Positions 4,704 to 48,026 of a stretch of 64,000 nt of DNA are shown here, piece after piece (positions within the stretch are counted from its first letter, which is position 1; every line of letters starts with the position of its first letter). The notes under the pieces were generated by a model. The model was not told where the DNA came from and did no database searches. It saw only the letters and a program-made list of their open reading frames with translations. The position numbers and the translations under genes are program-made. The DNA is taken from NCBI GenBank assembly GCA_016212185.1, contig JACRGX010000002.1:3760-67759 (forward strand). The letters run 5' to 3'. This stretch comes from Nitrospirota bacterium. Lineage in GTDB: Bacteria; Nitrospirota; Thermodesulfovibrionia; UBA6902; DSMQ01.

Positions 4704-5336
4704 ATGAAAACAGCCGCTTTAATTATTTTTGCCAAGACCCCGATTCCGGGCAAAGTGAAGACAAGACTCCAGCCTGATATTTCTCCTGAGGAAGGACTGA
4801 AAATCTATAAGTCTTTTGTCAGAGAAATAGCCGGCAGATGTTCAAAATTAAAAGGCGTTGATAAATTTTTAGGCTGTGCTCCCACGAAAGATGATGATTT
4901 TTTGAAAGGGCTTGCCGCAACGCATTGGTTTGAAATGTTTAATCAACGGGGGAAGGACCTTGGCGCAAGGATACTTAATGCCTTTAAAGACCATTTTAAA
5001 AAAGGCTATAAAAAGGTAATTATAATCGGCACTGACAGCCCTACAATACCGGTTAAATTCATAAAAAAGGCCTTTTCCGAACTGGATAAGAATGATTTTG
5101 TCCTCGGTCCATGCTGTGACGGCGGTTATTATCTAATCGGGGCAAGGAAGGTCTTTCCAAAGGTTTTTGACAATATTCCATGGGATACCAGCGAGGTGCT
5201 GATTAAAACAATTGACAGATTAGACGCATCCCGCATTAAATTTTTCCTGCTTCCTTTCTGGTATGACGTGGACACTATTAAAGACCTCCGCTTCTTTAAA
5301 AAGCATCTGAAGTACCTGGGAAAGCAGCAAACATAA
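4704..5336 (+). CDS. DUF2064-family nucleotidyltransferase-fold 'transferase'
   Basis: AALIIFAKTPIPGKVKTRL N-terminus, typical of DUF2064 / CofC-like proteins. Confidence 0.6.
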   Translation: MKTAALIIFAKTPIPGKVKTRLQPDISPEEGLKIYKSFVREIAGRCSKLKGVDKFLGCAPTKDDDFLKGLAATHWFEMFNQRGKDLGARILNAFKDHFKKGYKKVIIIGTDSPTIPVKFIKKAFSELDKNDFVLGPCCDGGYYLIGARKVFPKVFDNIPWDTSEVLIKTIDRLDASRIKFFLLPFWYDVDTIKDLRFFKKHLKYLGKQQT

Positions 5337-5491: not shown

Positions 5492-7006
5492 ATGCTTCTT
5501 TATTTATTTATAGCGATTTATTTTTGTATCCTGATAAGCGTATTTATCTACGCCGCCCACCGCTATTATATGGTGTACCTTTATTATAAACACCAGAAAA
5601 ACAAACCGGTCTCAAATGGAAAATTAACGCCTCTGCCGCATGTGACAATACAGCTTCCTTTATTTAATGAAATGTATGTGGTGAAGCGGCTGATTACGGC
5701 ATCCTGCGAAATTGACTATCCGAAAGAGCTGCTGGATATTCAGGTTCTTGACGACTCCACTGATGAGACTGTAATGATTGCACAAGAATGTGTCGGCGAA
5801 TTTGAAAAACAGGGGTATGACATTAATTATATTCATCGCAGCCGGAGGGATGGCTTCAAGGCAGGCGCATTGGCAGAAGGGCTAAAGAACGCAAAGGGTG
5901 AATTCGTCGCAGTATTTGACGCCGATTTTGTTCCGCAGAAGAATGTCCTGCAAAAAACCATCCATTATTTTTCTGACAAATCCGTAGGCATGGTGCAGAC
6001 GAGGTGGAGCTTTATAAACACAAAATACTCCCTGCTTACGAGGATACAGTCCATGATGCTTGACGGACATTTTGTGATTGAACACACGGCACGGAACTGG
6101 TCAGGCAGATTTTTTAACTTTAACGGCACGGCAGGCGTTTGGAGAAAAAAGGCGATAGAGACCGCAGGCGGATGGCAGAACGATACTCTGACAGAAGACC
6201 TGGATTTAAGCTACAGGGCGCAGTTAGCAGGATGGAAGTTCATATTTTTAAAGGATGAGACCGCCCCTTCAGAGATACCGGTAGATATTAATGGATTTAA
6301 GACGCAGCAGCACAGATGGGCAAAAGGCTCCATACAGACGGCAAAAAAGCTGCTGCCTGCAATAATGAAAAGCAATCTTCCATGGAAGGTTAAAGTAGAA
6401 GCATTTTTCCATCTGACAAACAATATTTCCTATCTGTTTATGTTGCTGCTGGCAATGTTGATGTATCCGTCTATGGTGGCCAGGATTAATATCGGATGGT
6501 TTCATATGCTTGTGACTGATGTGCCCTTCCTCCTGGTCGCAACAGTCGGCATTTCTTTTTTTTACATGTGCTCACAGAAAGAGGCTTATAAAGACTGGAA
6601 GTCAAGACTGATTTATCTGCCGGCACTAATGTCGCTCGGCATCGGGCTGTCTGTCAATAATTCAAAGGCGGTGCTGGAGGCGCTTTTTAACCGTGAGACC
6701 GAATTTACCCGCACCCCTAAATTTAAAATTGAGGGTAAAAAGGACAAATGGGCTGATAAGAAATACAAAGGCAAGACAACTCTTATGCCGATAATTGAAC
6801 TGCTTTTGGGGTTTTATTTTACCTTTAATATATATTTTGCTTATGTTAACAAAATCTATATTTCCATACCATTTTTGATGATATTCCAGATGGGTTTTTT
6901 TTATGTTGCATTTTTATCTTTATTCCAAGTATTATTTGGACGGATGATTTTAAAATTTATGCAGTATTTTACCTCTAACATCAAGGACATAATTACGGCC
7001 CAGTAA
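5492..7006 (+). CDS. Processive family-2 glycosyltransferase (cellulose/mannan-synthase-like, multi-TM C-terminus)
   Basis: DDSTDET, DAD, QTRW and QQHRWAKG (QxxRW) motifs, with C-terminal TM helices. Confidence 0.75.
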   Translation: MLLYLFIAIYFCILISVFIYAAHRYYMVYLYYKHQKNKPVSNGKLTPLPHVTIQLPLFNEMYVVKRLITASCEIDYPKELLDIQVLDDSTDETVMIAQECVGEFEKQGYDINYIHRSRRDGFKAGALAEGLKNAKGEFVAVFDADFVPQKNVLQKTIHYFSDKSVGMVQTRWSFINTKYSLLTRIQSMMLDGHFVIEHTARNWSGRFFNFNGTAGVWRKKAIETAGGWQNDTLTEDLDLSYRAQLAGWKFIFLKDETAPSEIPVDINGFKTQQHRWAKGSIQTAKKLLPAIMKSNLPWKVKVEAFFHLTNNISYLFMLLLAMLMYPSMVARINIGWFHMLVTDVPFLLVATVGISFFYMCSQKEAYKDWKSRLIYLPALMSLGIGLSVNNSKAVLEALFNRETEFTRTPKFKIEGKKDKWADKKYKGKTTLMPIIELLLGFYFTFNIYFAYVNKIYISIPFLMIFQMGFFYVAFLSLFQVLFGRMILKFMQYFTSNIKDIITAQ

Positions 7007-7069
7007 AAAGTGTAGAAAATAAATAATTTACTTGTTATATTAGATAACTTATATTTTCCGGAGGGGAAC

Positions 7070-8041
7070 ATGACAAAAAAGCTTATAATTGTTTTTATCA
7101 GTTTATTAAGCAGTATTATTTTTATTGCAAATGATTCTTTTGCAGGATGGACGCAGGCAAAAGGTCATGCCTATAACCAGTTGACTTATGGCTATTACGT
7201 CTCAAGCCATAAATACACCTCTCTTGAGACAAGGAATGATGTTGCCGTAGGCGCAACCAAGGGCAAGGAACGGATTGAGGCTTCTAAATTTGTATCGCGA
7301 AGCATTACTTATTATGGAGAATACGGACTTATTGATTCACTTACAATCTTTACCACAATCCCTTTGAAAGAGACGATATCGGCAGATACTATTAAGTATT
7401 CCGGGGAACGGGGCCCGAGCGGAATAGGCGATATAGATTTGGGTCTAAGATACAATCTTATGCAGAGTCTTGGAGGCGGACCGCTGTCACTGCAAGGCAC
7501 GGTGAAGATCCCCGAGGCATATAAATACGGCAATCCCTTGGAGTCATTAAGTTTAGGCGACGGCCAGTATGATGCAACGCTGGCTCTGCTCTATGGCAGA
7601 GGGTTAGGAAAAGGTTATGCCGTATTCAACGGAGGATATAAATATCGTTTTGAGAATCGTAAATACTATGCCTTTAAACCTTCGGATCAGATTAAGGTTT
7701 CAATAAGCGGCGGCTACCAAATTGCATCCAAGGTAGGTCTAGGAGCCATTGTAGACTGGACACGGTCTGTCGGAAATGCATATGTTTCAGATGAGATGAT
7801 AAAAGCTAATTATGCTTATGGCGGGCGCCGGTCTCAACAGGATAATGTCCTGATCAGGGATTCGCTGGGCCTTGAGCAGCAGGTTTTAAATGTGGGGGCA
7901 TCCCTGATTTACAATTTACCTTTTAAAAATACGCAGTTTGTGCTGTCCTATGCTGTTGATGTCGGCGGCGCAGGCATATTTGAAACCAATGATGCAGGAG
8001 TGGGAGAGACATATAACGCAGGATTGGTTTATACGTTTTAA
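7070..8041 (+). CDS. Secreted outer-membrane beta-barrel protein (transport-family-like)
   Basis: Signal peptide, alternating beta-strand pattern, C-terminal ...GLVYTF aromatic terminus. Confidence 0.45.
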   Translation: MTKKLIIVFISLLSSIIFIANDSFAGWTQAKGHAYNQLTYGYYVSSHKYTSLETRNDVAVGATKGKERIEASKFVSRSITYYGEYGLIDSLTIFTTIPLKETISADTIKYSGERGPSGIGDIDLGLRYNLMQSLGGGPLSLQGTVKIPEAYKYGNPLESLSLGDGQYDATLALLYGRGLGKGYAVFNGGYKYRFENRKYYAFKPSDQIKVSISGGYQIASKVGLGAIVDWTRSVGNAYVSDEMIKANYAYGGRRSQQDNVLIRDSLGLEQQVLNVGASLIYNLPFKNTQFVLSYAVDVGGAGIFETNDAGVGETYNAGLVYTF

Positions 8042-8056
8042 TTTAGATAATATTGT

Positions 8057-8088
8057 CCCGGCCTTTCATGAAATATGATGAGGCCGGG
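8057..8088 (+). terminator. Hairpin cccggcct(N16)aggccggg after the OMP gene, no T-tract
   Basis: 8-bp GC stem read directly; weak as an intrinsic terminator. Confidence 0.3.
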
Positions 8089-8111
8089 CAAATGTTCATT
8101 CCGTTTAATAA

Positions 8112-8747
8112 GTGGCTTCAATAATTAAAAAAATACCTTTTTCCCTCTTATTTGTACTGCTGCTGACAATTTTCTCCCTTTATGTTTTCAAACACAGCCA
8201 TACACTCATGGCAATTTTTTATCAGACGGTTAAACAGAATGATAAGGCTATAGCTGAATTTACAAAGGCAATCAACACTAACCCCCGGGATGCATATGCC
8301 TATTATCATTTGGGTTTAATGCTGAAGGATAAAATGGACTTTGACGGGGCTGAGGATATATATCTGAGATTGTTAAAAATTTTTCCAGAACACCCGGACG
8401 CCAATTACGACTTAGGCTATATTTACAGGGAAAAGGGGCTTTACGACAAGGCAATTGAAAGATACAGAAAAACGCTGGAGATTAATCCGAAGAATGTATA
8501 TGCGCATTATGATATGGGGTATATTTACAGGATCAACGGACGGTATGAGGAGGCGCTTAACGAGTATAAAAAAGCCTTGGAGATAGATTCAAAGCATCCT
8601 CATGCGCATTATGATACGGGATTAATCTATGAAAAATGGGGACTGAAGGATAAAGCGGAAGAAGAATTCAGGATTTACCATAAGATTACCGACCCTAATT
8701 TTATAGAAAATTTTATTAATAAGATAACAGGTAAGAAAAAAAAGTGA
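8112..8747 (+). CDS. TPR-repeat protein with N-terminal membrane anchor
   Basis: Repeated AYYxLGxxY 34-mer pattern (TPR). Confidence 0.7.
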   Translation: MASIIKKIPFSLLFVLLLTIFSLYVFKHSHTLMAIFYQTVKQNDKAIAEFTKAINTNPRDAYAYYHLGLMLKDKMDFDGAEDIYLRLLKIFPEHPDANYDLGYIYREKGLYDKAIERYRKTLEINPKNVYAHYDMGYIYRINGRYEEALNEYKKALEIDSKHPHAHYDTGLIYEKWGLKDKAEEEFRIYHKITDPNFIENFINKITGKKKK

Positions 8748-8769
8748 GGACAAATGAGTCCGGAGTTTT

Positions 8770-10866
8770 ATGGATACTATGTTTTTAAACAGTGCAATTT
8801 ATATTGCCGTAAATCTTCTGCTCTTCTCCTCATGGTATCTTCTCCTTTACCCCGTCAGAAAGAAAACCTTACCTGAACTTTCTAACGGAGGATGTCAACT
8901 ACCGTTCATTGACGGAGTTTTAGGTGCTTTTGTTCTGAGCCTGACCCAGATAATAGTTACAGAAATGATTCTGGGCGTGGTATTTAAGAGGCTCTATGCA
9001 ATGCCTCTTTTTTATTTGAATGTTTTTATATCGCTTATTGTCTTAATACTGGCGGTGCACTCAGGCAATAATAGGTTATTAAATCCCCCCGCCCCCCCTT
9101 TGCAAAAGGGGGGTAAAGGGGGATTTTTAGATAAAAATATTTTTAAAAATTTTCTATTAGAGTTTAGGAATGAGGCAAATCTGTTCTCCAATATAATAAA
9201 AAAAGATAAGATATTACTCTGCCTGTTTACAATTTTTTTAATTTACCTCTGTTACATGATTTTCATAGGCTGGCTTTTTCCGTCATATACGTGGGATGCG
9301 CTGTGGTATCACCTTCCCATAGCAGGCTATATCATGCAAGGCGGAGCTATTCAGGAGAATCCGGCGCCCTCTTTTATTGATCTTTTTATAAATATTTTTC
9401 CAAAAAACATGGAGCTATTTTTTCTCTGGAATATTATTTTCTTAAAAAGTGATATTATTGCGGATTTGAGCCAGCTCCTGTTTACCATAGCAGGGGTTTT
9501 CACTGTATACAGCATTGCCGTAAAAATGAGAATAAAGGAGGAACATGCCGTATATTCCGCCCTGCTGTTTTTTTTCACTCCCATAGTAATCCTGCAGTCT
9601 ACGACAAATTATATAGATATTGCCGTGTCGGTGTTATTCCTGATTGCTGTCAATTTCCTGATGTATGACGGCGCTGAAAATTATGCAAAAAACGAATCTG
9701 TGCTGAACCGCCTCAAGGAAAATAAAATTCCAGTGCTTCTTTCAGGACTTACGACCGGGATTTTATTAGGCTCAAAAGGTTCGGGCCCGATATTTGCGCT
9801 TGTGCTTGTAGTTATATTAACACTTAAAAATGTTTTAAAAAATTTCAATTTTTTAAAAACTGACGCATTACGCATTACGCATCACACATTACGGTTTTAT
9901 TCACTATATTTTATACTGCCGGCCTTTTTACTTGGAGGCTACTGGTATGTGAAAAACTGGGTCTTGTACAACAATCCCGTATATCCAATAAATATAACCA
10001 TTTTCAACACAACTCTCTTTAAGGGATTATACGGCGGGATAATAGACCCCCCTCCGCAGGTTTTTAAAGGATTAACTTTGCCGGCGCAGTTGTTTTATGT
10101 ATGGCTTGAAAGGGTTGAATATTATCTATATGACTCAAGGCTTAGCGGATTTGGCCCTGTATGGTTTATTCTTTTTCTGCCGACTGTTGTATTTTCTCTT
10201 GTGTCTGCTGTAAAAAATAAAAATTACGACTTTCTGTTTGTCAGTGCAATCCTTATCATAATATTTCTTGTTTATCCGAGAAACTGGAACACAAGATATG
10301 TAATTTTTATTGTTGGATTAGGCGCTGTTTCTTTTGGCACTGCGCTTGATTATTTTTGTGTAAAAGGCAAATGGCTTAAAATCATAGCGCTTTTACTTGC
10401 TGTCTATACATTTCTTACAGCAAATTCCCCCTGCATCATGCCTTCAAAAATCAGAGAATTTGTCCGCCTGCCTGCAAAAGAACGCTCAATATCAAGACAT
10501 GCCCCGTTCAACATAGACCTGCATGCAAGGCAGGAATACGGTTGTTGGATATGGATAGGCAATAATATCGTAAGAGGAGATACGCTGGCATATACTTTTG
10601 AGCCTCTGTTTCTCTCACCGTTATGGAACAGCGCTTTTTCAAACAGAATAATTTATATCAAGTCAGAGAGTTATAACGAATGGTTGGAAAACTTAAAGAA
10701 AAATAATGTAACATATGTATTAATCAGACAGAATTCTGAAGAGGATAAATGGGTGGATAAGGCAAGGAAGCTTATCAGCAGATTCTGGTGGCTCAGCGCT
10801 CCCTCTGAAAAATTCAAGGTCGTTTATTCGGACGAAAATTATAAAATAATGAAATTTATCAAGTGA
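8770..10866 (+). CDS. Large polytopic membrane protein, possible lipid-linked-sugar glycosyltransferase (ArnT/PMT-like fold?)
   Basis: About 12 predicted TM helices. Contains in-frame repeat insertions at 9092..9114 and 9865..9896. Functional assignment is weak. Confidence 0.35.
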   Translation: MDTMFLNSAIYIAVNLLLFSSWYLLLYPVRKKTLPELSNGGCQLPFIDGVLGAFVLSLTQIIVTEMILGVVFKRLYAMPLFYLNVFISLIVLILAVHSGNNRLLNPPAPPLQKGGKGGFLDKNIFKNFLLEFRNEANLFSNIIKKDKILLCLFTIFLIYLCYMIFIGWLFPSYTWDALWYHLPIAGYIMQGGAIQENPAPSFIDLFINIFPKNMELFFLWNIIFLKSDIIADLSQLLFTIAGVFTVYSIAVKMRIKEEHAVYSALLFFFTPIVILQSTTNYIDIAVSVLFLIAVNFLMYDGAENYAKNESVLNRLKENKIPVLLSGLTTGILLGSKGSGPIFALVLVVILTLKNVLKNFNFLKTDALRITHHTLRFYSLYFILPAFLLGGYWYVKNWVLYNNPVYPINITIFNTTLFKGLYGGIIDPPPQVFKGLTLPAQLFYVWLERVEYYLYDSRLSGFGPVWFILFLPTVVFSLVSAVKNKNYDFLFVSAILIIIFLVYPRNWNTRYVIFIVGLGAVSFGTALDYFCVKGKWLKIIALLLAVYTFLTANSPCIMPSKIREFVRLPAKERSISRHAPFNIDLHARQEYGCWIWIGNNIVRGDTLAYTFEPLFLSPLWNSAFSNRIIYIKSESYNEWLENLKKNNVTYVLIRQNSEEDKWVDKARKLISRFWWLSAPSEKFKVVYSDENYKIMKFIK

Positions 10867-11001: not shown

Positions 11002-11697
11002 ATGCTGTCAGGTAAAAAAATTGTCGTAATAATCCCCGCCTTGAATGAAGAAAAGGCTTTGCCGCTTGTCATAGCAGAGATTCCTAAAGACATAGTTGAT
11101 GCAATAATCGTTGTTGATAACGGCAGTTCTGACAGGACATTTCTCGTTGCGCAGGAATGCGGTGCATCTGTTATAAAAGAGGAGAGAAGGGGTTATGGCA
11201 ATGCCTGCCTCAAAGGCATTGAATATGCAGGGCAGAAACGGCCTGACATTATAGTATTTCTTGACGGAGACCACAGTGATTATCCTGAAGAGGTTACTTC
11301 CCTGATAAGGCCCATTATTAAAGACGGTTATGACCTGGTGCTGGGTTCAAGGTCAAAGGGCGAGAGGGAAAAAGGTTCAATGACGCCGCAGTCTTTCTAC
11401 GGGAATAAATTCGGCACGCTTCTCATCAAAATCCTTTTTGGTTTTTCATATACTGACTTTGGTCCGTTCAGGGCCATCAGGTTTGATAAGCTGATTGACT
11501 TAAATATGCAGGATACGACTTATGGATGGACCGTTGAGATGCAGATTAAGGCAGTAAAAAAAAGTTATAAAATAAAAGAAATGCCTGTCAGATACAGGGT
11601 CAGGGTCGGCAAATCAAAAGTCTCAGGGACATTAAAAGGTACTGTAATGGCAAGTTATAAAATACTGCTGACTATATTTAAGTATTGGATTTCTTAA
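11002..11697 (+). CDS. Small family-2 glycosyltransferase (Dpm1 / polyprenyl-phosphate sugar synthase-like)
   Basis: VVIIPALNEE, VVDNGSSD and FLDGDHSD (DxD) motifs. Confidence 0.8.
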   Translation: MLSGKKIVVIIPALNEEKALPLVIAEIPKDIVDAIIVVDNGSSDRTFLVAQECGASVIKEERRGYGNACLKGIEYAGQKRPDIIVFLDGDHSDYPEEVTSLIRPIIKDGYDLVLGSRSKGEREKGSMTPQSFYGNKFGTLLIKILFGFSYTDFGPFRAIRFDKLIDLNMQDTTYGWTVEMQIKAVKKSYKIKEMPVRYRVRVGKSKVSGTLKGTVMASYKILLTIFKYWIS

Positions 11698-11724: not shown

Positions 11725-11754
11725 TTGACTTTGACCGGCAATAAAGTGTAAAAT
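11725..11754 (+). promoter_or_regulatory. Sigma70-like promoter: TTGACT, 18-nt spacer, TG-TAAAAT
   Basis: -35 at 11725..11730, -10 at 11749..11754 with upstream TG, and an AAAGGAG RBS 7 nt before the ATG at 11784. Confidence 0.5.
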
Positions 11755-11783: not shown

Positions 11784-14192
11784 ATGGCAAAATCCTGTTG
11801 TGAATCACGAGAAACAAGGCTTGAGCAGTATCAGATTGACAAGTGGAAGGTTAAGGAATCGGAGTTTAAGACCTTTAAACCCGATGATCTACTGTATTCC
11901 CCCCAATATATTAAAAAAGAAAAAAACGGTGTTTTTCTTCTCATTGACCCCCAGTCGCCAAACTGGCTCAGCACAAACAATATAGGCGCTGAGATTATAG
12001 CCCTTTGCGACGGCAAGCATAAGGTATCTGACATTCAGGAAGCTATGTTTGCGAAATACGGGGCCTCCGGCGCTGAGCATATTAAGAAAGAGACAGCTGA
12101 ATTTATTAATGCCGCAGGCACTATGGAATTTATTTCCGGTTCGCCTTTTTTAATCCGCGAATATCCCGGCAGGGGCAAGGTAATAGCGCCTCATAAAATG
12201 GATGAGCTATGGATATATAATACAATGCAGTGCAATCTCAGGTGTAAGCACTGTCTTGTGAGCGCAGGTAAGGAATTGAAGGATGAACTGACCGGAAAAG
12301 AGATTAAAAAGCTTGTGGATGAGGCGATAGAGTTAGGCGTCAAGCGGTTTTATATTACAGGCGGAGAGCCGTTTATGAAGGATGATATTTTTGAGGTGAT
12401 AAAATATATAACCAAAGAAAAAAACAAGGAACTGATTATACAGACAAATGCAACCCTGTTTGATGATAAGAAAATATCAGCATTAAAAGATTTTAAAAGC
12501 CCGCTGCTTACAATACAGGCAAGCTTAGAGGGTCCTGACGCAAAAATACATGACAGCATCCGCGGTAAAGGCAGTTTCAACAAGGCGGTTGAAGGGGTAA
12601 AGAAACTGATTGATATCGGTATAACCCCGGTGATTGCCACCGCAATCAGCAAGTATAATGAGGATTCAGTAACAGATACCTCTAAGTTTTTGTCAACACT
12701 CGGAGTCAAGGACCATCATATCCTCTGGATGCACACGCGGGGACGCGGGGCAAGCAATGTGGATAAACTGCTGGTCCCTTCGGACAGGATATCAAATATA
12801 ATGCAGGACCTGAGGAAGATTTATAAAGAAGGCGCGATAATTGTTGATAATGAAGAATCCCTCAAGGTCAGGCTGAAGGCTAAAAGGGGCAGAAAAAACG
12901 ACCTCTGCAACAATTGCTATGAAAAGGTATGTGTGAATTCAGACGGGCATGTATATCCGTGCGCCTCTTTTAACGGCGATAAGCGGTTTGATGCAGGCTC
13001 TATCAGGGAAAAGAGCCTGAAGGACATATGGCTGAATTCAAAGGTCATGGCAGGGTTTAGAAACAGCAGTGTTAAGGATAAGGAAGAGTGCAGTGCGTGT
13101 TATTTAAAGTATTTTTGCGGCGGCGGATGCACTGCCCAGAGTTACTATGCAAGCGAGGTTGAAACCGGGAAAGGCTCTTTTATGGCGCAGGAGCCTTATT
13201 GTTTAACTTATAAGACATTGTTTGAAGAAATACTTTGGGACCTGGCCAGAGAAGGCGCGCCTTCTGATGCAAAGAAAAAAGGGTATGCCACTCCATTTGT
13301 TTATAATGCAATGGACGGAAAACTCCCGCCGTATCTCAGTCATTCTTTTAAGACCATTGATGACAACTTTGAGGTAGGCTGCTACCACTGTTCATGCGTT
13401 CTGGCGGTTGATGTTGAGGATGATGAAGCAGTCTGCAAGCCGGACATAAAAGGGCAGGTGACAAAGACCGTAAAAAAGAAGTTTTCAACTGCCGCTCATG
13501 TTGCCGAGGCAAATTATTATTGCCCCACGGGATATAACCCCAAGGATTTGGAGCATATCCCGACAGAGGTGCTTGATGTATCCTACGGCTGTGGTAATCC
13601 TGCGGCAATAGCAGAGCTTAAGGAAGGGGATGTGGTCCTGGATTTAGGCTCAGGCGCCGGCATAGACTGTTTTATCGCCGCAAAGAGGCTCGGCAAAAAC
13701 GGCAGGGTGATAGGGCTTGACATGACTGACGAGATGGTTGAGAAGGCAGCGGAAAGCGCAAAAAAGGTTGCTAAATCTTTGGGCTACGATATTGTTGAAT
13801 TCAAAAAAGGGGAATTGATGAATATGCCTGTAGAGGACAACTCCATTGACCTTGTAATATCAAACTGTGTTGTTAATCTGACAGAAGATAAGGCTAAGGT
13901 CATGGATGAGGTTTTCAGGGTGCTGAAACCCGGCGGCAGGTTTGTCATCTCCGACATAGTTGCGGATAAGCCTATTCCGGGCTTTATGAGGAGGGACAAA
14001 GAGCTGTGGGCCGCATGTCTTTCCGGAGCATTGACAGAGGAAAGGTTTTTGGAGGCGGCAGTGGAGGCCGGACTTACAAATGTAAATCTGACTAAAAACT
14101 ATCTCTACAAAAAGGTAGAGTATATAAATTTCTATTCGGTCACAATGAAGGGATTTAAACCGCAGAAAATTACATGCGGCGGCTGCCCATAA
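11784..14192 (+). CDS. Fusion protein: PqqD-like N-terminal domain + radical SAM / SPASM domain + ArsM-type SAM-dependent methyltransferase
   Basis: Radical SAM motif CNLRCKHC; SPASM-like Cys clusters CNNCYEKVC...C and CSACYLKYFCGGGC; Cys-rich linker GCYHCSC. The C-terminal domain carries the ArsM motifs YYCPTG, SYGCGNP, VLDLGSGAGIDCF, GRVIGLDMT, ISNCVVNL, VLKPGGRFVISD and WAACLSGAL. Confidence 0.8.
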   Translation: MAKSCCESRETRLEQYQIDKWKVKESEFKTFKPDDLLYSPQYIKKEKNGVFLLIDPQSPNWLSTNNIGAEIIALCDGKHKVSDIQEAMFAKYGASGAEHIKKETAEFINAAGTMEFISGSPFLIREYPGRGKVIAPHKMDELWIYNTMQCNLRCKHCLVSAGKELKDELTGKEIKKLVDEAIELGVKRFYITGGEPFMKDDIFEVIKYITKEKNKELIIQTNATLFDDKKISALKDFKSPLLTIQASLEGPDAKIHDSIRGKGSFNKAVEGVKKLIDIGITPVIATAISKYNEDSVTDTSKFLSTLGVKDHHILWMHTRGRGASNVDKLLVPSDRISNIMQDLRKIYKEGAIIVDNEESLKVRLKAKRGRKNDLCNNCYEKVCVNSDGHVYPCASFNGDKRFDAGSIREKSLKDIWLNSKVMAGFRNSSVKDKEECSACYLKYFCGGGCTAQSYYASEVETGKGSFMAQEPYCLTYKTLFEEILWDLAREGAPSDAKKKGYATPFVYNAMDGKLPPYLSHSFKTIDDNFEVGCYHCSCVLAVDVEDDEAVCKPDIKGQVTKTVKKKFSTAAHVAEANYYCPTGYNPKDLEHIPTEVLDVSYGCGNPAAIAELKEGDVVLDLGSGAGIDCFIAAKRLGKNGRVIGLDMTDEMVEKAAESAKKVAKSLGYDIVEFKKGELMNMPVEDNSIDLVISNCVVNLTEDKAKVMDEVFRVLKPGGRFVISDIVADKPIPGFMRRDKELWAACLSGALTEERFLEAAVEAGLTNVNLTKNYLYKKVEYINFYSVTMKGFKPQKITCGGCP

Positions 14193-14235
14193 ATCGCAGA
14201 GCAGATAAAAAAATACCTAATGAGGAGGTAATAAT

Positions 14236-15720
14236 ATGAGAGTTAGTTTAGTAAATGCACAGGTGCTTGACGGTAATAATGTAGTTCCACCGCTTGGACT
14301 GATGTATATCGCGGCTGTCCTTGAAAAAGCAGGGCACAAGGTGCAGATTTTTGATGCCGACCCTGAGTATCAGGCAGGCATTCTGAAAGAGATAAAAGAG
14401 TTTAAGCCGGACCTTATCGGACTGGGTTTTTTGACTGTAGGCTATCAGAGGGCACTGAAATTGTTCAGAGGATTAAAAAAAGAAATACCTGACGCTATGT
14501 ACTGCTTGGGCGGCGTTCATCCGACGGTTAAGCCTATGGAAACCATAAATGAGTTTGATGCGGATTTCATTGTGCTCGGAGAGGGCGAGGATACGATTGT
14601 AGAGGCATGTGAAAAATTGGAGAAGAAGCAGGGGCTGGCAGGCGTAAAGGGCGTCATGTACCATGAGAACGGAAAAATTATAGATAACGGCAGGCGCGAC
14701 ATGATACCTGATATTGATACAATTCCGTTTCCTGCAAGACACCTGATAGACATGGGACCGTATCTCAAACCGCCGGGTATTATCAGGGGTTATGCCACCA
14801 AGAACCAGACCACTGTTGTTACAAGCAGGGGCTGTCCGTTCAGATGCATATACTGCGGAAGCCATAACATATTCGGAAGAAAGACCAGGAGACGCTCGGT
14901 TAAGAACGTTGTTGACGAGATAGAATTTCTCCATAAGACATACGACATAAAAGGCATATATTTCTGCGATGACAGTTTTACATTAAGGCCTGAATGGGTC
15001 AGGGAATATTGCGATGACTTAAAACGCAGAAATCTGGATATAAAATGGGGATGCCAGTCAAGGGTGGACCAGACTGATGAGGAATTGATGAGGTTAATGA
15101 AAGACCGGGGACTTGTCCAGCTTGACTTCGGCGTTGAGAGCGGCTCGGAAAAGATGCTGAAGGTACTGGGCAAGGGCGGACACGGCGACAGGACTTCGCA
15201 GATTAAAAAATCCTTTGAGCTTTGCAGAAAACTGGACATCAGGACCCTGGCTACATTTATAATCGGCAACCCTGAAGAAACCATGGAAGACATACAGCAG
15301 AGCTTTTCTGTGGCTAAAGAGATTAATGCCGATTACACTGCATTTTACTTCCTGACCCCATATCCGGGTACGGAAATTTATGAAATGGCAATTAAGAATA
15401 AATGGCTGGACCCGAACCTTCCATTCTCAGACATATGGGCGCACAGGCAGCCGGAACTGCCGCTGATGAAGATAACCTTTGAGAAAGAGGAATTAAGGGA
15501 CATACGCAAAAAACTGCAGAACCACTTCTTCTGGAAGAATTATTTTACTGCCACCGGGAATATCAGCTTCTACGGAATACTGTTTTCCATCATCTTCAGG
15601 CATCCGGGGGTTATTTTTACAGCGCTTGGAAAACTGGTGAGGACGGGTAGGCTGGATTACGTGGTTGAAACGCTTAATGCAGAATACTGGAGAATGAAAA
15701 AATACGAGGCTGCCGGATAA
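14236..15720 (+). CDS. Cobalamin-binding (class B) radical SAM enzyme
   Basis: N-terminal B12-binding-like domain followed by TSRGCPFRCIYCGS (Cx3Cx2C). Confidence 0.8.
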   Translation: MRVSLVNAQVLDGNNVVPPLGLMYIAAVLEKAGHKVQIFDADPEYQAGILKEIKEFKPDLIGLGFLTVGYQRALKLFRGLKKEIPDAMYCLGGVHPTVKPMETINEFDADFIVLGEGEDTIVEACEKLEKKQGLAGVKGVMYHENGKIIDNGRRDMIPDIDTIPFPARHLIDMGPYLKPPGIIRGYATKNQTTVVTSRGCPFRCIYCGSHNIFGRKTRRRSVKNVVDEIEFLHKTYDIKGIYFCDDSFTLRPEWVREYCDDLKRRNLDIKWGCQSRVDQTDEELMRLMKDRGLVQLDFGVESGSEKMLKVLGKGGHGDRTSQIKKSFELCRKLDIRTLATFIIGNPEETMEDIQQSFSVAKEINADYTAFYFLTPYPGTEIYEMAIKNKWLDPNLPFSDIWAHRQPELPLMKITFEKEELRDIRKKLQNHFFWKNYFTATGNISFYGILFSIIFRHPGVIFTALGKLVRTGRLDYVVETLNAEYWRMKKYEAAG

Positions 15721-15756
15721 CAATTATTGAAAACCGCGTAAGTAATGTCCGCTATG

Positions 15757-15850
15757 CTGTCATTCCGTGCTTAACGGAGCCTGCCCCGTACTTGATACGG
15801 GGGAATCCAGTCCGTTCCTCTGGATTCCTGCCTTCGCAGGAATGACAGGA
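15757..15850. repeat. MITE-like palindromic element of the TCTGGATTCC...GGAATGAC family
   Basis: gtcattcc ... ccccgtacttgatacggggg ... tctggattcc ... ggaatgaca; related copies at 23478..23603, 47545..47574 and 53171..53248. Confidence 0.5.
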
Positions 15851-15909
15851 TACAATAAGCGTAAGACACTAATATTAAGGGAATCCAGAGTCAGAATTTG
15901 TTTTTTTAA

Positions 15910-15938
15910 GCCGGTTGCAGTTATGCAACCGGCTTTTT
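15910..15938 (+). terminator. Intrinsic terminator, bidirectional: gccggttgca-gtta-tgcaaccggc then TTTTT, with an upstream T-run
   Basis: 10-bp perfect stem and 4-nt loop followed by T5, downstream of the rSAM operon. Confidence 0.6.
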
Positions 15939-16069: not shown

Positions 16070-16399
16070 ATGGCTCTTCAGGCCGTTTTAAAAGAAAGAG
16101 AAAAAAAACTAACGATATTAAGAAATAATGCCATGAAAGAGGCGCAAAGGCTCGCTTTCCTTTTAAGCAAGCGCTATAAGTTTGAGGCGATTTATCTTTT
16201 CGGCTCGCTTTTATCAGGAAAGTTCAGATTACATTCAGACATTGATATGGTAATAAAAGGTTTGAAAGTGGAGGATTTTTTTAAGGCGCATGCATTTTTA
16301 ATAAAAGAAAGCAGGTATAGAATTGATTTGAAGCCTTTTGAGGATCTTGAGGACAGCTTTAAGGAAAAAATTTTGCGGAAAGGATTGAAAATTGGATAA
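16070..16399 (+). CDS. Nucleotidyltransferase (MNT-type antitoxin)
   Basis: IYLFGSLLSGKFRLHSDIDMVI (GS...DxD). Confidence 0.7.
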   Translation: MALQAVLKEREKKLTILRNNAMKEAQRLAFLLSKRYKFEAIYLFGSLLSGKFRLHSDIDMVIKGLKVEDFFKAHAFLIKESRYRIDLKPFEDLEDSFKEKILRKGLKIG

Positions 16400-16874
16400 A
16401 GATATTTTAAGGGAAATCATCTCTGAAATAGAAAAAGAGCTTGAAAATATTAATGAATTCAGGAAGGAACTGATGAAAATAAAATCTGAAAATTCTATAA
16501 CATTCAGGCGTTCAATTGGTTCCATTCTGCATGATTTTTATAACTGCTGTGAAAGGGTCTTTAAAAAAACAGCGAGCGGCATTAACGGCAGTTATGAAGA
16601 TTCGGACAAATGGCATAAGTCGCTGCTGGTTAGAATGACTATCCCGATTAAAGATATAAGACCGGCAGTAATTTCCGAGGAACTTGCCGCTGAACTTGAC
16701 GAATACCTGTCTTTCAGGCATGTATTCAGAAATATCTATGGTTTTGAGCTTAAAGGCGACAGGATTAAATACCTTGCGGAAAAATTTGATAATGTTGCGG
16801 AAAGATTTATCAGTGAGATTAAAAAATTCCTTATTTTTTTAAGTAAAGAGCTGCAGGAATCAAAAGCGGATTAA
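16392..16874 (+). CDS. HEPN-like putative toxin partner of the MNT
   Basis: Overlaps the MNT stop by 8 nt. FRHVFRNIYGF is a loose match to the HEPN Rx4-6H motif. Confidence 0.4.
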   Translation: MDKDILREIISEIEKELENINEFRKELMKIKSENSITFRRSIGSILHDFYNCCERVFKKTASGINGSYEDSDKWHKSLLVRMTIPIKDIRPAVISEELAAELDEYLSFRHVFRNIYGFELKGDRIKYLAEKFDNVAERFISEIKKFLIFLSKELQESKAD

Positions 16875-47574: not shown

Positions 47575-48026
47575 GGAATGACAAAGACTTTAAAAATCTC
47601 CTCAAAAAACAAAAAAGCTGAGCATGCCAAAGGTTTTTCCTTGGCAGCTCAGCCATGCCGGTTCTCCGGTATCTGGTGCTTTCCGCCTCCCGATTACTCA
47701 GGATTTGGCTTTATCTGGAAAATTATTATACAATTTAACATTTACACAAAGTTACAAACCCTGTCAAGAAAATTTAATAAATTTTATAGATGCTATAAGA
47801 ATTTTTTATAGTTGGATTGATATAAATCCAGTAGCATAACTTCTGAATTCCCGCCTGTCCGGCAGGCAGGTTTTCGCGGGAATTAACACAATCCCGAAGT
47901 GCCGGGAACACAAAGGGAGTATAAAAATACACCCTCCCCTTCATCCCCTCCTCTACTAGCCAGTGACCGTCCCGAAACGGGTCTCCGCGCAGGGTCGCTC
48001 CGACAAGGGAGGGGAGATATCTTCCC

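Follow-up and report, generated by a model that had tools for sequence, protein, structure and literature searches.

Architecture of the cassette

Within a stretch of 64,000 nucleotides from a Nitrospirota bacterium (contig JACRGX010000002.1, assembly GCA_016212185.1; hereafter the window), two intact open reading frames (ORFs) lie next to each other on the forward strand and make up the cassette considered here. The first (11784..14192, 802 aa, MBI5194718.1) encodes a single chain in which a domain resembling PqqD and the recognition elements (RREs) of ribosomally synthesized and post-translationally modified peptide (RiPP) enzymes is followed by a radical S-adenosylmethionine (SAM) core, a SPASM domain, a Cys-rich linker and an ArsM-type methyltransferase. 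The second (14236..15720, 494 aa, MBI5194719.1) begins 43 nt downstream and encodes a radical SAM enzyme with a B12-binding domain (Pfam B12-binding and Radical_SAM). A preliminary description of this DNA had read both from the letters alone, i.e., a four-part 802-aa ORF and a cobalamin-binding partner behind it, and all of these parts were recovered by Pfam (PqqD at residues 53-110, Radical_SAM at 149-303, SPASM at 375-440 and Methyltransf_31 at 613-757), by motifs (CNLRCKHC, GCYHCSC, YYCPTG, SYGCGNP, ISNCVVNL and WAACLSGAL) and by AlphaFold2 with Foldseek. The AlphaFold2 model, built on 117 homologs, has a mean predicted local distance difference test (pLDDT) of 89.8 and a predicted template modelling score (pTM) of 0.86. 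We consider that there is about an even chance that the cassette is a biosynthetic unit for organo-arsenicals (arsenic being taken as the thiophilic metalloid), neither a resistance pump nor a classical peptide maturase.

The methyltransferase domain (residues 557-795, 13452..14168, +; SAM motif VLDLGSGAG) is of the short ArsM type according to Pfam, NCBIfam, alignment and Foldseek. Methyltransf_31 scores 123 bits, and the best NCBIfam model is that of an arsenite methyltransferase, NF008823 (PRK11873), at 257.1 bits with a curated cutoff of 263, the more specific ArsM models all being far under theirs. Among solved structures it matches ArsM best (E 1e-37 to 1e-28), the first methyltransferase of another kind following only at 7e-16; on sequence, the domain groups with ArsM and not with UbiE/COQ5, as the preliminary description had supposed. 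The modelled domain superposes on ArsM/AS3MT structures, including the As(III)-bound 6cx6, at 2.0-2.8 Å root-mean-square deviation and 33-39% identity, the deviations for the Foldseek matches 6cx6, 5evj and 4fr0 spanning 2.0-4.1 Å, and the last 240 residues share fold, SAM motif and As(III)-binding cysteines with CmArsM (4fr0/6cx6), CrArsM (5evj) and human AS3MT (8xt7). Three of these cysteines, C603, C695 and C745, match C72, C174 and C224 of CmArsM residue by residue. C580 belongs to the N-terminal loop that in ArsMs bears the fourth Cys; it lies 23 residues before C603 (28 in CmArsM) and is equated to C44 by position only, so that the earlier statement that every ArsM cysteine is retained stands for three of them by alignment and for this one by place. 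Like the short bacterial ArsM (PRK11873), the fusion ends in a Cys-containing tail (ITCGGCP plus the stop codon, 14169..14192, +), which is Cys-rich and variable among homologs, and the long C-terminal domain of CmArsM is missing from it; it differs from ArsM in the ~555 residues (RRE, radical SAM, SPASM and Cys linker) that stand in front. With a Nitrospira ArsM adjoining a true ArsS (Radical_SAM plus DUF3641), ArsC, Acr3 and ArsR the domain shares 50% identity, and methylation of As(III) and methylarsenite, MAs(III), by the fusion is predicted from these likenesses.

The other half of the chain begins with an extension of ~30 aa (11784..11873, +) that, in alignments, carries an invariant Cys5-Cys6 pair (MAKxCC) in the Nitrospirota type only. 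The PqqD/RRE-like domain (residues ~31-125, 11874..12158, +) reaches 31.4 bits with Pfam PqqD (cutoff 23.4). A profile of it gives weak matches to solved structures, of which the six best are all PqqD or RRE domains (TbiB1, PqqD and lasso-peptide RREs; E 0.004-0.7), with two ISG15 chains next at E~1. The domain is present family-wide, P59 and W61 being invariant. Behind it come the radical SAM core (C150-x3-C154-x2-C157 and GGEP, 12201..12773, +), invariant in the whole family, and the SPASM domain (12876..13253, +; Pfam SPASM 42.4 bits; C375, C378, C383, C393, C436, C439, C445, C449 and C473), which in the window protein retains the full seven-Cys motif, i.e., two auxiliary-cluster sites. CteB, a sactipeptide maturase of RRE, radical SAM and SPASM domains, aligns across its full length, RRE region included, and superposes on modelled residues ~1-480 (Foldseek, template modelling score 0.71 on target). 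Together with SuiB, SkfB, PqqE and anSME it provides the best matches to residues 1-490, all having in common with the fusion the PqqD-like domain, CX3CX2C and the seven-Cys SPASM. The closest radical SAM families in NCBIfam, NirJ2 and AhbD, are matched far under their cutoffs.

Such features are consistent with a RiPP or protein maturase, in which the RRE would bind a leader peptide whose gene lies elsewhere, the SPASM radical SAM domain would introduce thioether or C-C crosslinks, the methyltransferase would methylate the peptide (e.g., to S-methyl-Cys) and the B12 enzyme would C-methylate it; the PqqD score above cutoff, the lasso-peptide and PQQ RREs at the top of the profile matches, the CteB, SkfB, SuiB and anSME structures, the retained SPASM motif and a sub-threshold match of the B12 partner to the RiPP enzyme ApyD (NCBIfam) all favour it. 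We nevertheless regard it as unlikely. Around the six annotated cassette loci no ORF of 15-100 aa within 2 kb is conserved in more than two, and neither proteases nor exporters are recurrent neighbours of the cassette. The four metalloid-binding ArsM cysteines, superfluous for a peptide methyltransferase, are invariant, and the RRE-like domain survives in relatives that lack the SPASM cysteines and that reside in sugar-, permease- and reductase-type gene clusters. Vertical conservation throughout the class at 63-81% identity is, in addition, atypical of RiPP clusters. The fusion departs from the peptide maturases in having no cognate precursor peptide nearby and an ArsM attached, and for want of a conserved peptide gene the last of the three roles proposed in the preliminary description (organo-arsenical synthesis, methylation of another metalloid, and a RiPP-type modification) is the weakest.

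Between the two halves lies the Cys-rich linker (GCYHCSC...C551, 13356..13451, +), where model confidence is lower (pLDDT 61-75), suggesting flexibility, and where C538 is invariant in every subtype. Among 21 aligned Nitrospirota homologs the invariant cysteines are C5-C6, C150/C154/C157, the nine of the SPASM region, C536, C538 and C551 of the linker, and C580, C603, C629, C695 and C745 of the ArsM domain. In 117 sequences of two subtypes C538 and the ArsM residues C580, C603, C695 and C745 remain invariant, and the elements that persist in all subtypes are the radical SAM motif, C538 (motif H-S/C-N-C-V-L), C603, C695 and C745. Every subtype has a complete radical SAM active site (CX3CX2C plus GGEP), which implies a catalysis of its own.

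The B12 partner contains a B12-binding domain (residues 15-123, 80 bits; 14278-14604, +) and a radical SAM core (residues 194-357, 85 bits; 14815-15306, +), both from Pfam. The pairing of the two genes is strict: the partner stands directly 3' of the fusion in 35/35 evaluable loci of the Nitrospirota type, i.e., those where the contig extends past the fusion, drawn from the six annotated loci and 37 more from a linker-specific metagenome scan (gap 8-167 nt, median ~41). In the six annotated loci the two are always neighbours, both flanks varying. The partner orthologs are 74-97% identical and form a tight orthologous group of their own, confined to the Nitrospirota type; none of the other fusion subtypes has this partner. 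With class B radical SAM enzymes (BchE/HpnJ, PhpK, the Sden_1168 family, AprD4) the partner shares B12-binding domain and core, all scores being far below the NCBIfam cutoffs (BchE 210 vs 481, HpnJ 187 vs 578, the Sden_1168 P-methyltransferase family 140 vs 575, AprD4 131 vs 500). The NCBIfam ArsL model matches the partner alone, at 54 bits for a cutoff of 450.

That NirJ2/AhbD and BchE/HpnJ are the leading radical SAM matches of the fusion and the partner, respectively, could point to modification of a tetrapyrrole or another cofactor, and hemA, hemC and ccsA do lie near the cassette in loci L002 and L004, as does a siroheme synthase domain in L001. We hold this to be very improbable, as the matches are far under the cutoffs (167 vs 500 and 210 vs 481), the heme genes are on the opposite strand or several genes off and occur in only 2-3/6 loci, and both the ArsM cysteines and the gene contexts of the wider family would be left unexplained.

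As a separate observation, a Nitrospiraceae locus (L089, 351-9485 and 11366-13384) groups four B12-radical SAM paralogs with Rrf2, TusA, NifS and NifU genes, and a homolog of a 698-aa protein of the window with 12 transmembrane (TM) segments is found ~2 kb from them.

Distribution and gene neighbourhoods of the family

The fusion was considered an undescribed architecture in the preliminary description. No curated family and no paper were found for it, so that part stands; it is by no means rare, however, and belongs to a large family across many phyla. Its Nitrospirota type alone comprises more than 120 clusters at 90% identity, with proteins of ~800 aa, 63-81% identical and of the same domain set, and the named clusters are nearly all Nitrospirota/Thermodesulfovibrionia. 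A search for distant fusions that covered 1.8 billion cluster representatives added dozens of clusters with the full-length architecture, at 30-49% identity. The nearest relatives (P0121-P0124) keep the SPASM cysteines, which are invariant in the Nitrospirota type and missing from two other subtypes. One of these, the P0125 type (~835 aa), has more than 1,155 members, and the taxa among the matches listed in a genome-collection scan with an ArsM-generic pattern include Elusimicrobia, Omnitrophica, Nitrospinae, Nitrospiria, Acidobacteriota, Gemmatimonadota, Planctomycetota and others. The other subtype (~1,000-1,080 aa; P0130, P0142, P0146, P0148, P0152 and P0163) ends in DUF5714, has no equivalent of C580 and is represented in genomes by loci L017-L023 and L025, mostly of Desulfobacterota, around which no partner genes recur. 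Finally, in a 711-aa protein (P0133) the order is reversed, an ArsM-like methyltransferase coming first and radical SAM plus SPASM second; it is an independent fusion of both activities. Given the occurrence of the fusion in many phyla and this reversed order, we argue for a joint function of the radical SAM and ArsM halves.

No subtype reaches the cutoff of any NCBIfam family, and database names are generic ("methyltransferase domain-containing protein" or "PqqD family chaperone"). Full-text literature searches yielded nothing that describes this kind of fusion or DUF5714, and those on ArsM/radical SAM fusions, SPASM with arsenite methyltransferase, and TIGR04282 returned only background on ArsS and ArsL as relevant. 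The fusion is common and still without an assigned function. Neither of the two outcomes that the preliminary description had named as refuting it, a UbiE/COQ5 grouping of the methyltransferase or a common fusion of already assigned function, has thus come about. Scan loci from Nitrospira and Methanobacterium that had seemed to hold fusions were rejected, as they carry separate ArsM and ArsS (DUF3641) or unrelated radical SAM genes, and were kept as a control set.

Gene neighbourhoods were compared by tblastn for 43 loci of the window's own (Nitrospirota) type, 56 of the P0125 type, eight of the DUF5714 type and 45 of stand-alone ArsM; many P0125-type contigs end early, and the counts for that type are therefore lower bounds. 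A recurrent set of partners accompanies the P0125-type fusions and is almost absent from stand-alone ArsM: TIGR04282 (29/56 vs 0/45), DedA/VTT (24/56 vs 0/45), a PiT/PHO4 permease (23/56 vs 0/45), a pyridine-nucleotide disulfide oxidoreductase (Pyr_redox_2; 22/56 vs 2/45), DUF547 (21/56 vs 0/45), a family 2 glycosyltransferase (GT2) resembling Dpm1/AglJ (19/56 vs 0/45), a GT-C-like membrane protein (15/56 vs 0/45), SodC (11/56 vs 0/45) and a DsrE-like protein (8/56 vs 0/45). Resistance genes show the opposite trend, i.e., an ArsC-like low-molecular-weight (LMW) phosphatase in 8/56 vs 16/45, ArsR in 1/56 vs 17/45 and Acr3 in 0/56 vs 10/45. The order in one fully annotated locus (L128) is VTT, Pyr_redox, GT87-like, GT2, TIGR04282, fusion, DUF547, DsrE, SodC, LMW phosphatase and PHO4; its TIGR04282 protein scores 187 bits (cutoff 134), and the best models for its phosphatase are arsenate reductases (88 bits vs a cutoff of 158). 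This cluster of at least ten genes (L128, 579-11465) has ~40 similar metagenome loci (L127-L169) and a counterpart in L088, and we found no description of it in the literature.

NCBIfam names TIGR04282 and TIGR04283 arsenosugar-biosynthesis transferases. Both stand beside fusions in L008 and L010, above cutoffs, as adjacent genes or fused in one protein; in L088 they are recognised by the corresponding Pfam domains, and TIGR04282 homologs adjoin fusions also in L016. In four Nitrospira loci (L033, L034, L036 and L037) pairs of ArsM and ArsS lie in ars operons (ArsC, Acr3, ArsR), with PiT/PHO4 in 3/4 and a DsrE-like gene in 2/4. Taken together, these neighbourhoods place the fusion family in a biosynthesis-like cluster, which has PHO4 and DsrE genes in common with the ArsM/ArsS loci, and not among resistance operons. 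ArsS (TIGR04167) is thus comparable to the fusion as a radical SAM enzyme tied to ArsM, with PHO4, DsrE-like, TIGR04282 and TIGR04283 as common neighbours; it has DUF3641, for which the fusion gives no match, showing RRE and SPASM instead, and it is not an ortholog of this chain with two activities. Three Thermodesulfovibrionia relatives have a PHO4 gene 3' of the cassette on the same strand, preceded by a PhoU-like gene in L001 (14100-15708), present also in L106, and in L107 cut after its start by the contig end; the distant subtypes show a comparable association with PiT. The organo-arsenical role proposed in the preliminary description has gained comparative support from these contexts.

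A simpler function in the same chemistry would be plain arsenic detoxification, i.e., an ArsM supported under anoxic conditions by the radical SAM and B12 enzymes (with electrons or methyl-cobalamin) and forming no new As-C scaffold. The ArsM domain is intact, B12 enzymes are able to deliver methyl groups, and the hosts are anaerobes whose names point to sulfate-reducing Nitrospirota metagenome-assembled genomes. Yet all 107 fusion loci together contain one ArsR and no Acr3, compared with 17 and 10 among only 45 stand-alone ArsM loci, so that the fusion, in contrast to ArsM, almost never accompanies these genes; CX3CX2C and GGEP are invariant in all subtypes; and partners of the glycosyl- and nucleotidyltransferase kind indicate a product that is built. 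Detoxification alone is therefore even less probable to us than a peptide maturase.

The near-absence of ArsR and Acr3 could also mean that the element is not arsenic, but selenium, tellurium, antimony or sulfur (as persulfide or polysulfide), methylated by the ArsM-like domain and then bonded to carbon by the radical SAM domain. Several of the P0125-type partners (DsrE-like, disulfide oxidoreductase, DedA/VTT and SodC) would fit this, as would NCBIfam entries for ArsM-like selenoprotein fusions, its relation of DUF5714 to a "metal-binding double selenoprotein MbdU", and a permease (L015) whose best NCBIfam match, below cutoff, is a sulfate permease, PiT-family permeases being able to transport sulfate as well. 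Weighing against it, sequence and fold are nearest to enzymes proven on As(III), the Cys set is that of the ArsM As(III) site, the LMW phosphatase partner is best modelled by arsenate reductase, and PHO4 and DsrE partners are also found beside true ars operons with ArsM and ArsS. We think such a switch of element improbable, to about the same degree as a peptide maturase, and an arsenic-based biosynthetic unit remains the reading that we prefer.

Signals, upstream genes and the rest of the window

The preliminary description had placed both genes under one promoter and one terminator. The sequences are there: a sigma-70-like candidate, TTGACT-18-TAAAAT (11725..11754, +), is the top regional match (10/12), and an intrinsic-terminator-like hairpin with a T run (15908..15935, +) has a 12-bp stem with seven G-C pairs. 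Promoter-like sites in the region are not more frequent than in shuffled sequence (11 observed vs 11.4 expected), and we consequently treat the promoter as plausible and unproven. The motif is kept in L005 and L006 in the upstream alignment; seven aligned upstream regions show no conserved operator or sigma-54 promoter, only -35/-10-like boxes in close relatives. Shine-Dalgarno-like sequences, AAAGGAG and GGAGG, precede the two ORFs, one each, and as part of the organo-arsenical reading we propose that the genes form one operon. Between the stop codon of the B12 gene and the terminator, the 3' untranslated region holds a multi-hairpin element (15740..15860, +; -45.8 kcal/mol, z = -3.9 vs shuffles) flanked by inverted repeats GTCATTCC...GGAATGAC. 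The 24-nt core that was tested (15823-15846) has a single copy in the window, and the element could be an insertion of the repetitive extragenic palindromic (REP) or miniature inverted-repeat transposable element (MITE) kind, or a 3' stabiliser.

Upstream on the same strand lie, in this order, genes for ThiL, DUF2062, an M50 peptidase, TIGR04282, a processive GT2, an outer membrane protein (OMP)-like protein, a TPR protein, the 12-TM protein, a small GT2 and the cassette. The DUF2064 transferase, two GT2s and membrane protein reported earlier are thus all present as stated; as context of the system, only TIGR04282 and the small GT2 are found repeatedly beside family members, unlike the large GT2, OMP-like, TPR and 12-TM proteins. 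The TIGR04282/DUF2064 gene (4704..5336, +), encoding a CofC-like transferase, scores 201.6 bits (cutoff 134; Pfam DUF2064 also matching) and is 30-38% identical to its homologs in P0125-type clusters. The small GT2 (11002..11697, +; Pfam Glycos_transf_2) resembles AglJ and dolichyl- or polyprenyl-phosphate hexose transferases, the NCBIfam AglJ-like match being below cutoff, and shares 46-53% identity with the partner GT2 of P0125-type loci (51% to that of L128), which stands before TIGR04282 and the fusion in 19/56. By sequence, then, the window carries homologs of two conserved family partners. Within the window type this combination was seen only in the window, L006, L090 and L092; L005 has a leftover 3' end of the small GT2 upstream of its cassette, suggesting loss in other lineages.

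The genes between these two partners (5492..10866, +; family matches and a scan for TM segments and signal peptides) comprise the large processive GT2, which is CelA/PgaC-like with TM segments, the OMP-like protein (signal peptide, beta-rich, YTF C-terminus), the TPR protein and the 698-aa 12-TM protein, for which no family match and no solved relatives were found. GC content is lower here (0.37-0.39), and outside the window the block adjoins fusions only in L006, L090 and L092, the closest relatives. It is probably an envelope-polysaccharide module (exopolysaccharide synthesis/export) unrelated to the cassette system, and looks like an insertion between TIGR04282 and the small GT2. Owing to its absence at other loci and its lower GC, we dropped 5492..10866 from the system, in which the entire upstream glycosyltransferase block had at first been included. 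The 12-TM protein (8770..10866) was likewise rejected as a counterpart of the GT-C-like partner in L128 (hhalign probability 0.05).

Two further features of the window were observed. Right after the cassette terminator there is a type VII toxin-antitoxin pair of overlapping genes on the forward strand, an MntA-like nucleotidyltransferase antitoxin (16070..16399) and a HepT-like toxin (16392..16874). A c-di-GMP-I riboswitch aptamer is located at 47640-47719 on the reverse strand (Rfam RF01051, 52.4 bits vs a gathering score of 35) and confirms that the DNA is bacterial.

A proposed organo-arsenical route and its implications

In the organo-arsenical biosynthesis that we propose, As(III) would be held by C580, C603, C695 and C745 of the ArsM domain, probably assisted by C538 of the linker and the Cys-rich N- and C-terminal arms, by analogy with ArsL, which binds As(III) via its Cys-rich tail RCCLKC (PMC13598754). 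The arsenic would then be methylated from SAM, and the radical SAM/SPASM domain of the same chain would take over the methylated trivalent arsenical and join arsenic to carbon. This could occur by adenosylation, as in ArsS, which adds a 5'-deoxyadenosyl radical to trivalent dimethylated arsenic, DMAs(III), to give 5'-deoxy-5'-dimethylarsinoyl-adenosine, DDMAA (PMC13598754), or by coupling to a substrate radical. The B12-radical SAM partner might subsequently add a methyl group or rearrange the product. In this lineage TIGR04282 and the Dpm1-like GT2 would move the product to a sugar- or polyprenyl-phosphate-linked carrier, and elsewhere DedA and GT-C proteins would join them in nucleotide- or polyprenyl-phosphate-sugar transfer, for the latter of which the logic of ArnC/ArnT is the model. 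The pairing of a radical SAM enzyme with ArsM for an organoarsenical, together with a Cys-rich As(III)-binding terminus, would liken the fusion to ArsL plus ArsM (PMC13598754); ArsL differs in being non-canonical (ACP radical) and unfused, and has no meaningful sequence relation to the fusion. The domain architecture, the intact catalytic and Cys motifs, the strict pairing of the two genes and the conservation of neighbourhoods are observed; we infer that arsenic is the substrate, and likewise how the steps are ordered, what the radical step consists of and what the B12 enzyme does.

Several observations weigh against this proposal. In its architecture the radical SAM half, which resembles CteB and anSME and carries an RRE plus two sites for auxiliary clusters, is typical of peptide-modifying enzymes, and its likeness to a true ArsS, that of L034, is confined to the core (26% over 132 aa, without DUF3641). 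The ArsM score is just under the curated cutoff of NF008823, and the activity of the fusion family on arsenic is deduced from sequence and gene context. The "arsenosugar" in the name of TIGR04282 is a label given by the database and not an experimental result. A paralog of the B12 partner, 65% identical, is encoded in another Nitrospirota genome, not beside a fusion. No homolog of ArsR, Acr3, ArsC or PHO4 was detected in the 64-kb window by tblastn, ArsB not having been searched, so that the gene set of a classical ars operon (ArsR, Acr3/ArsB and ArsC) is not found there. Moreover, ~40/43 window-type loci are without the PHO4, ArsC-like, TIGR04282 and GT2 partners, and the argument from context is for this reason drawn mostly from relatives that are 35-40% identical.

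A more ambitious form of the same idea, which we offer tentatively and deem clearly less probable than the general one, is that of an assembly line in which methyl transfer from SAM, chemistry of a 5'-deoxyadenosyl radical with two auxiliary Fe-S clusters, and cobalamin-dependent radical methylation yield a new organoarsenical in strictly anaerobic Nitrospirota. Arsenic would be shuttled between the sites on Cys arms (the N-terminal Cys-Cys, C538 and the C-terminal tail), and the RRE-like domain would dock the protein's own Cys arm instead of a free peptide. The target of methylation by the B12 enzyme would be arsenic or a neighbouring carbon, in analogy to P-methylation by PhpK. The wider family, with its TIGR04282, GT2, DedA, PiT and ArsC-like partners, would constitute a second route, independent of ArsS, to compounds of the arsenosugar or arsenolipid type in non-phototrophic members of many phyla.

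Altogether, what had been observed in the preliminary description is confirmed and its interpretation is supported, with the corrections given above, and the cassette is most likely a variant of the organoarsenical systems that combine ArsM with a radical SAM enzyme, one that is widespread and uncurated. Most known producers of organoarsenicals such as arsenosugars, arsenolipids and arsinothricin are algae, cyanobacteria and a small number of soil bacteria, and to our knowledge ArsS and ArsL are the only As-C-forming radical SAM enzymes characterised. The fusion points to a third one of this type, fused to its methyltransferase, widespread in uncultured anaerobes and in soil and groundwater phyla, that has escaped curation. 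It also offers gene sets that can be tested, i.e., the fusion with its B12 partner, or the fusion with the TIGR04282 and GT2 partners. If our reading is true, the family would supply a compact enzyme for making As-C bonds, and metagenomic "arsM" counts would need correction, because the fusion genes would not be detoxification genes. It would also represent an unrecognised microbial sink for arsenic, and a way by which it is transformed, in anoxic aquifers and sediments.

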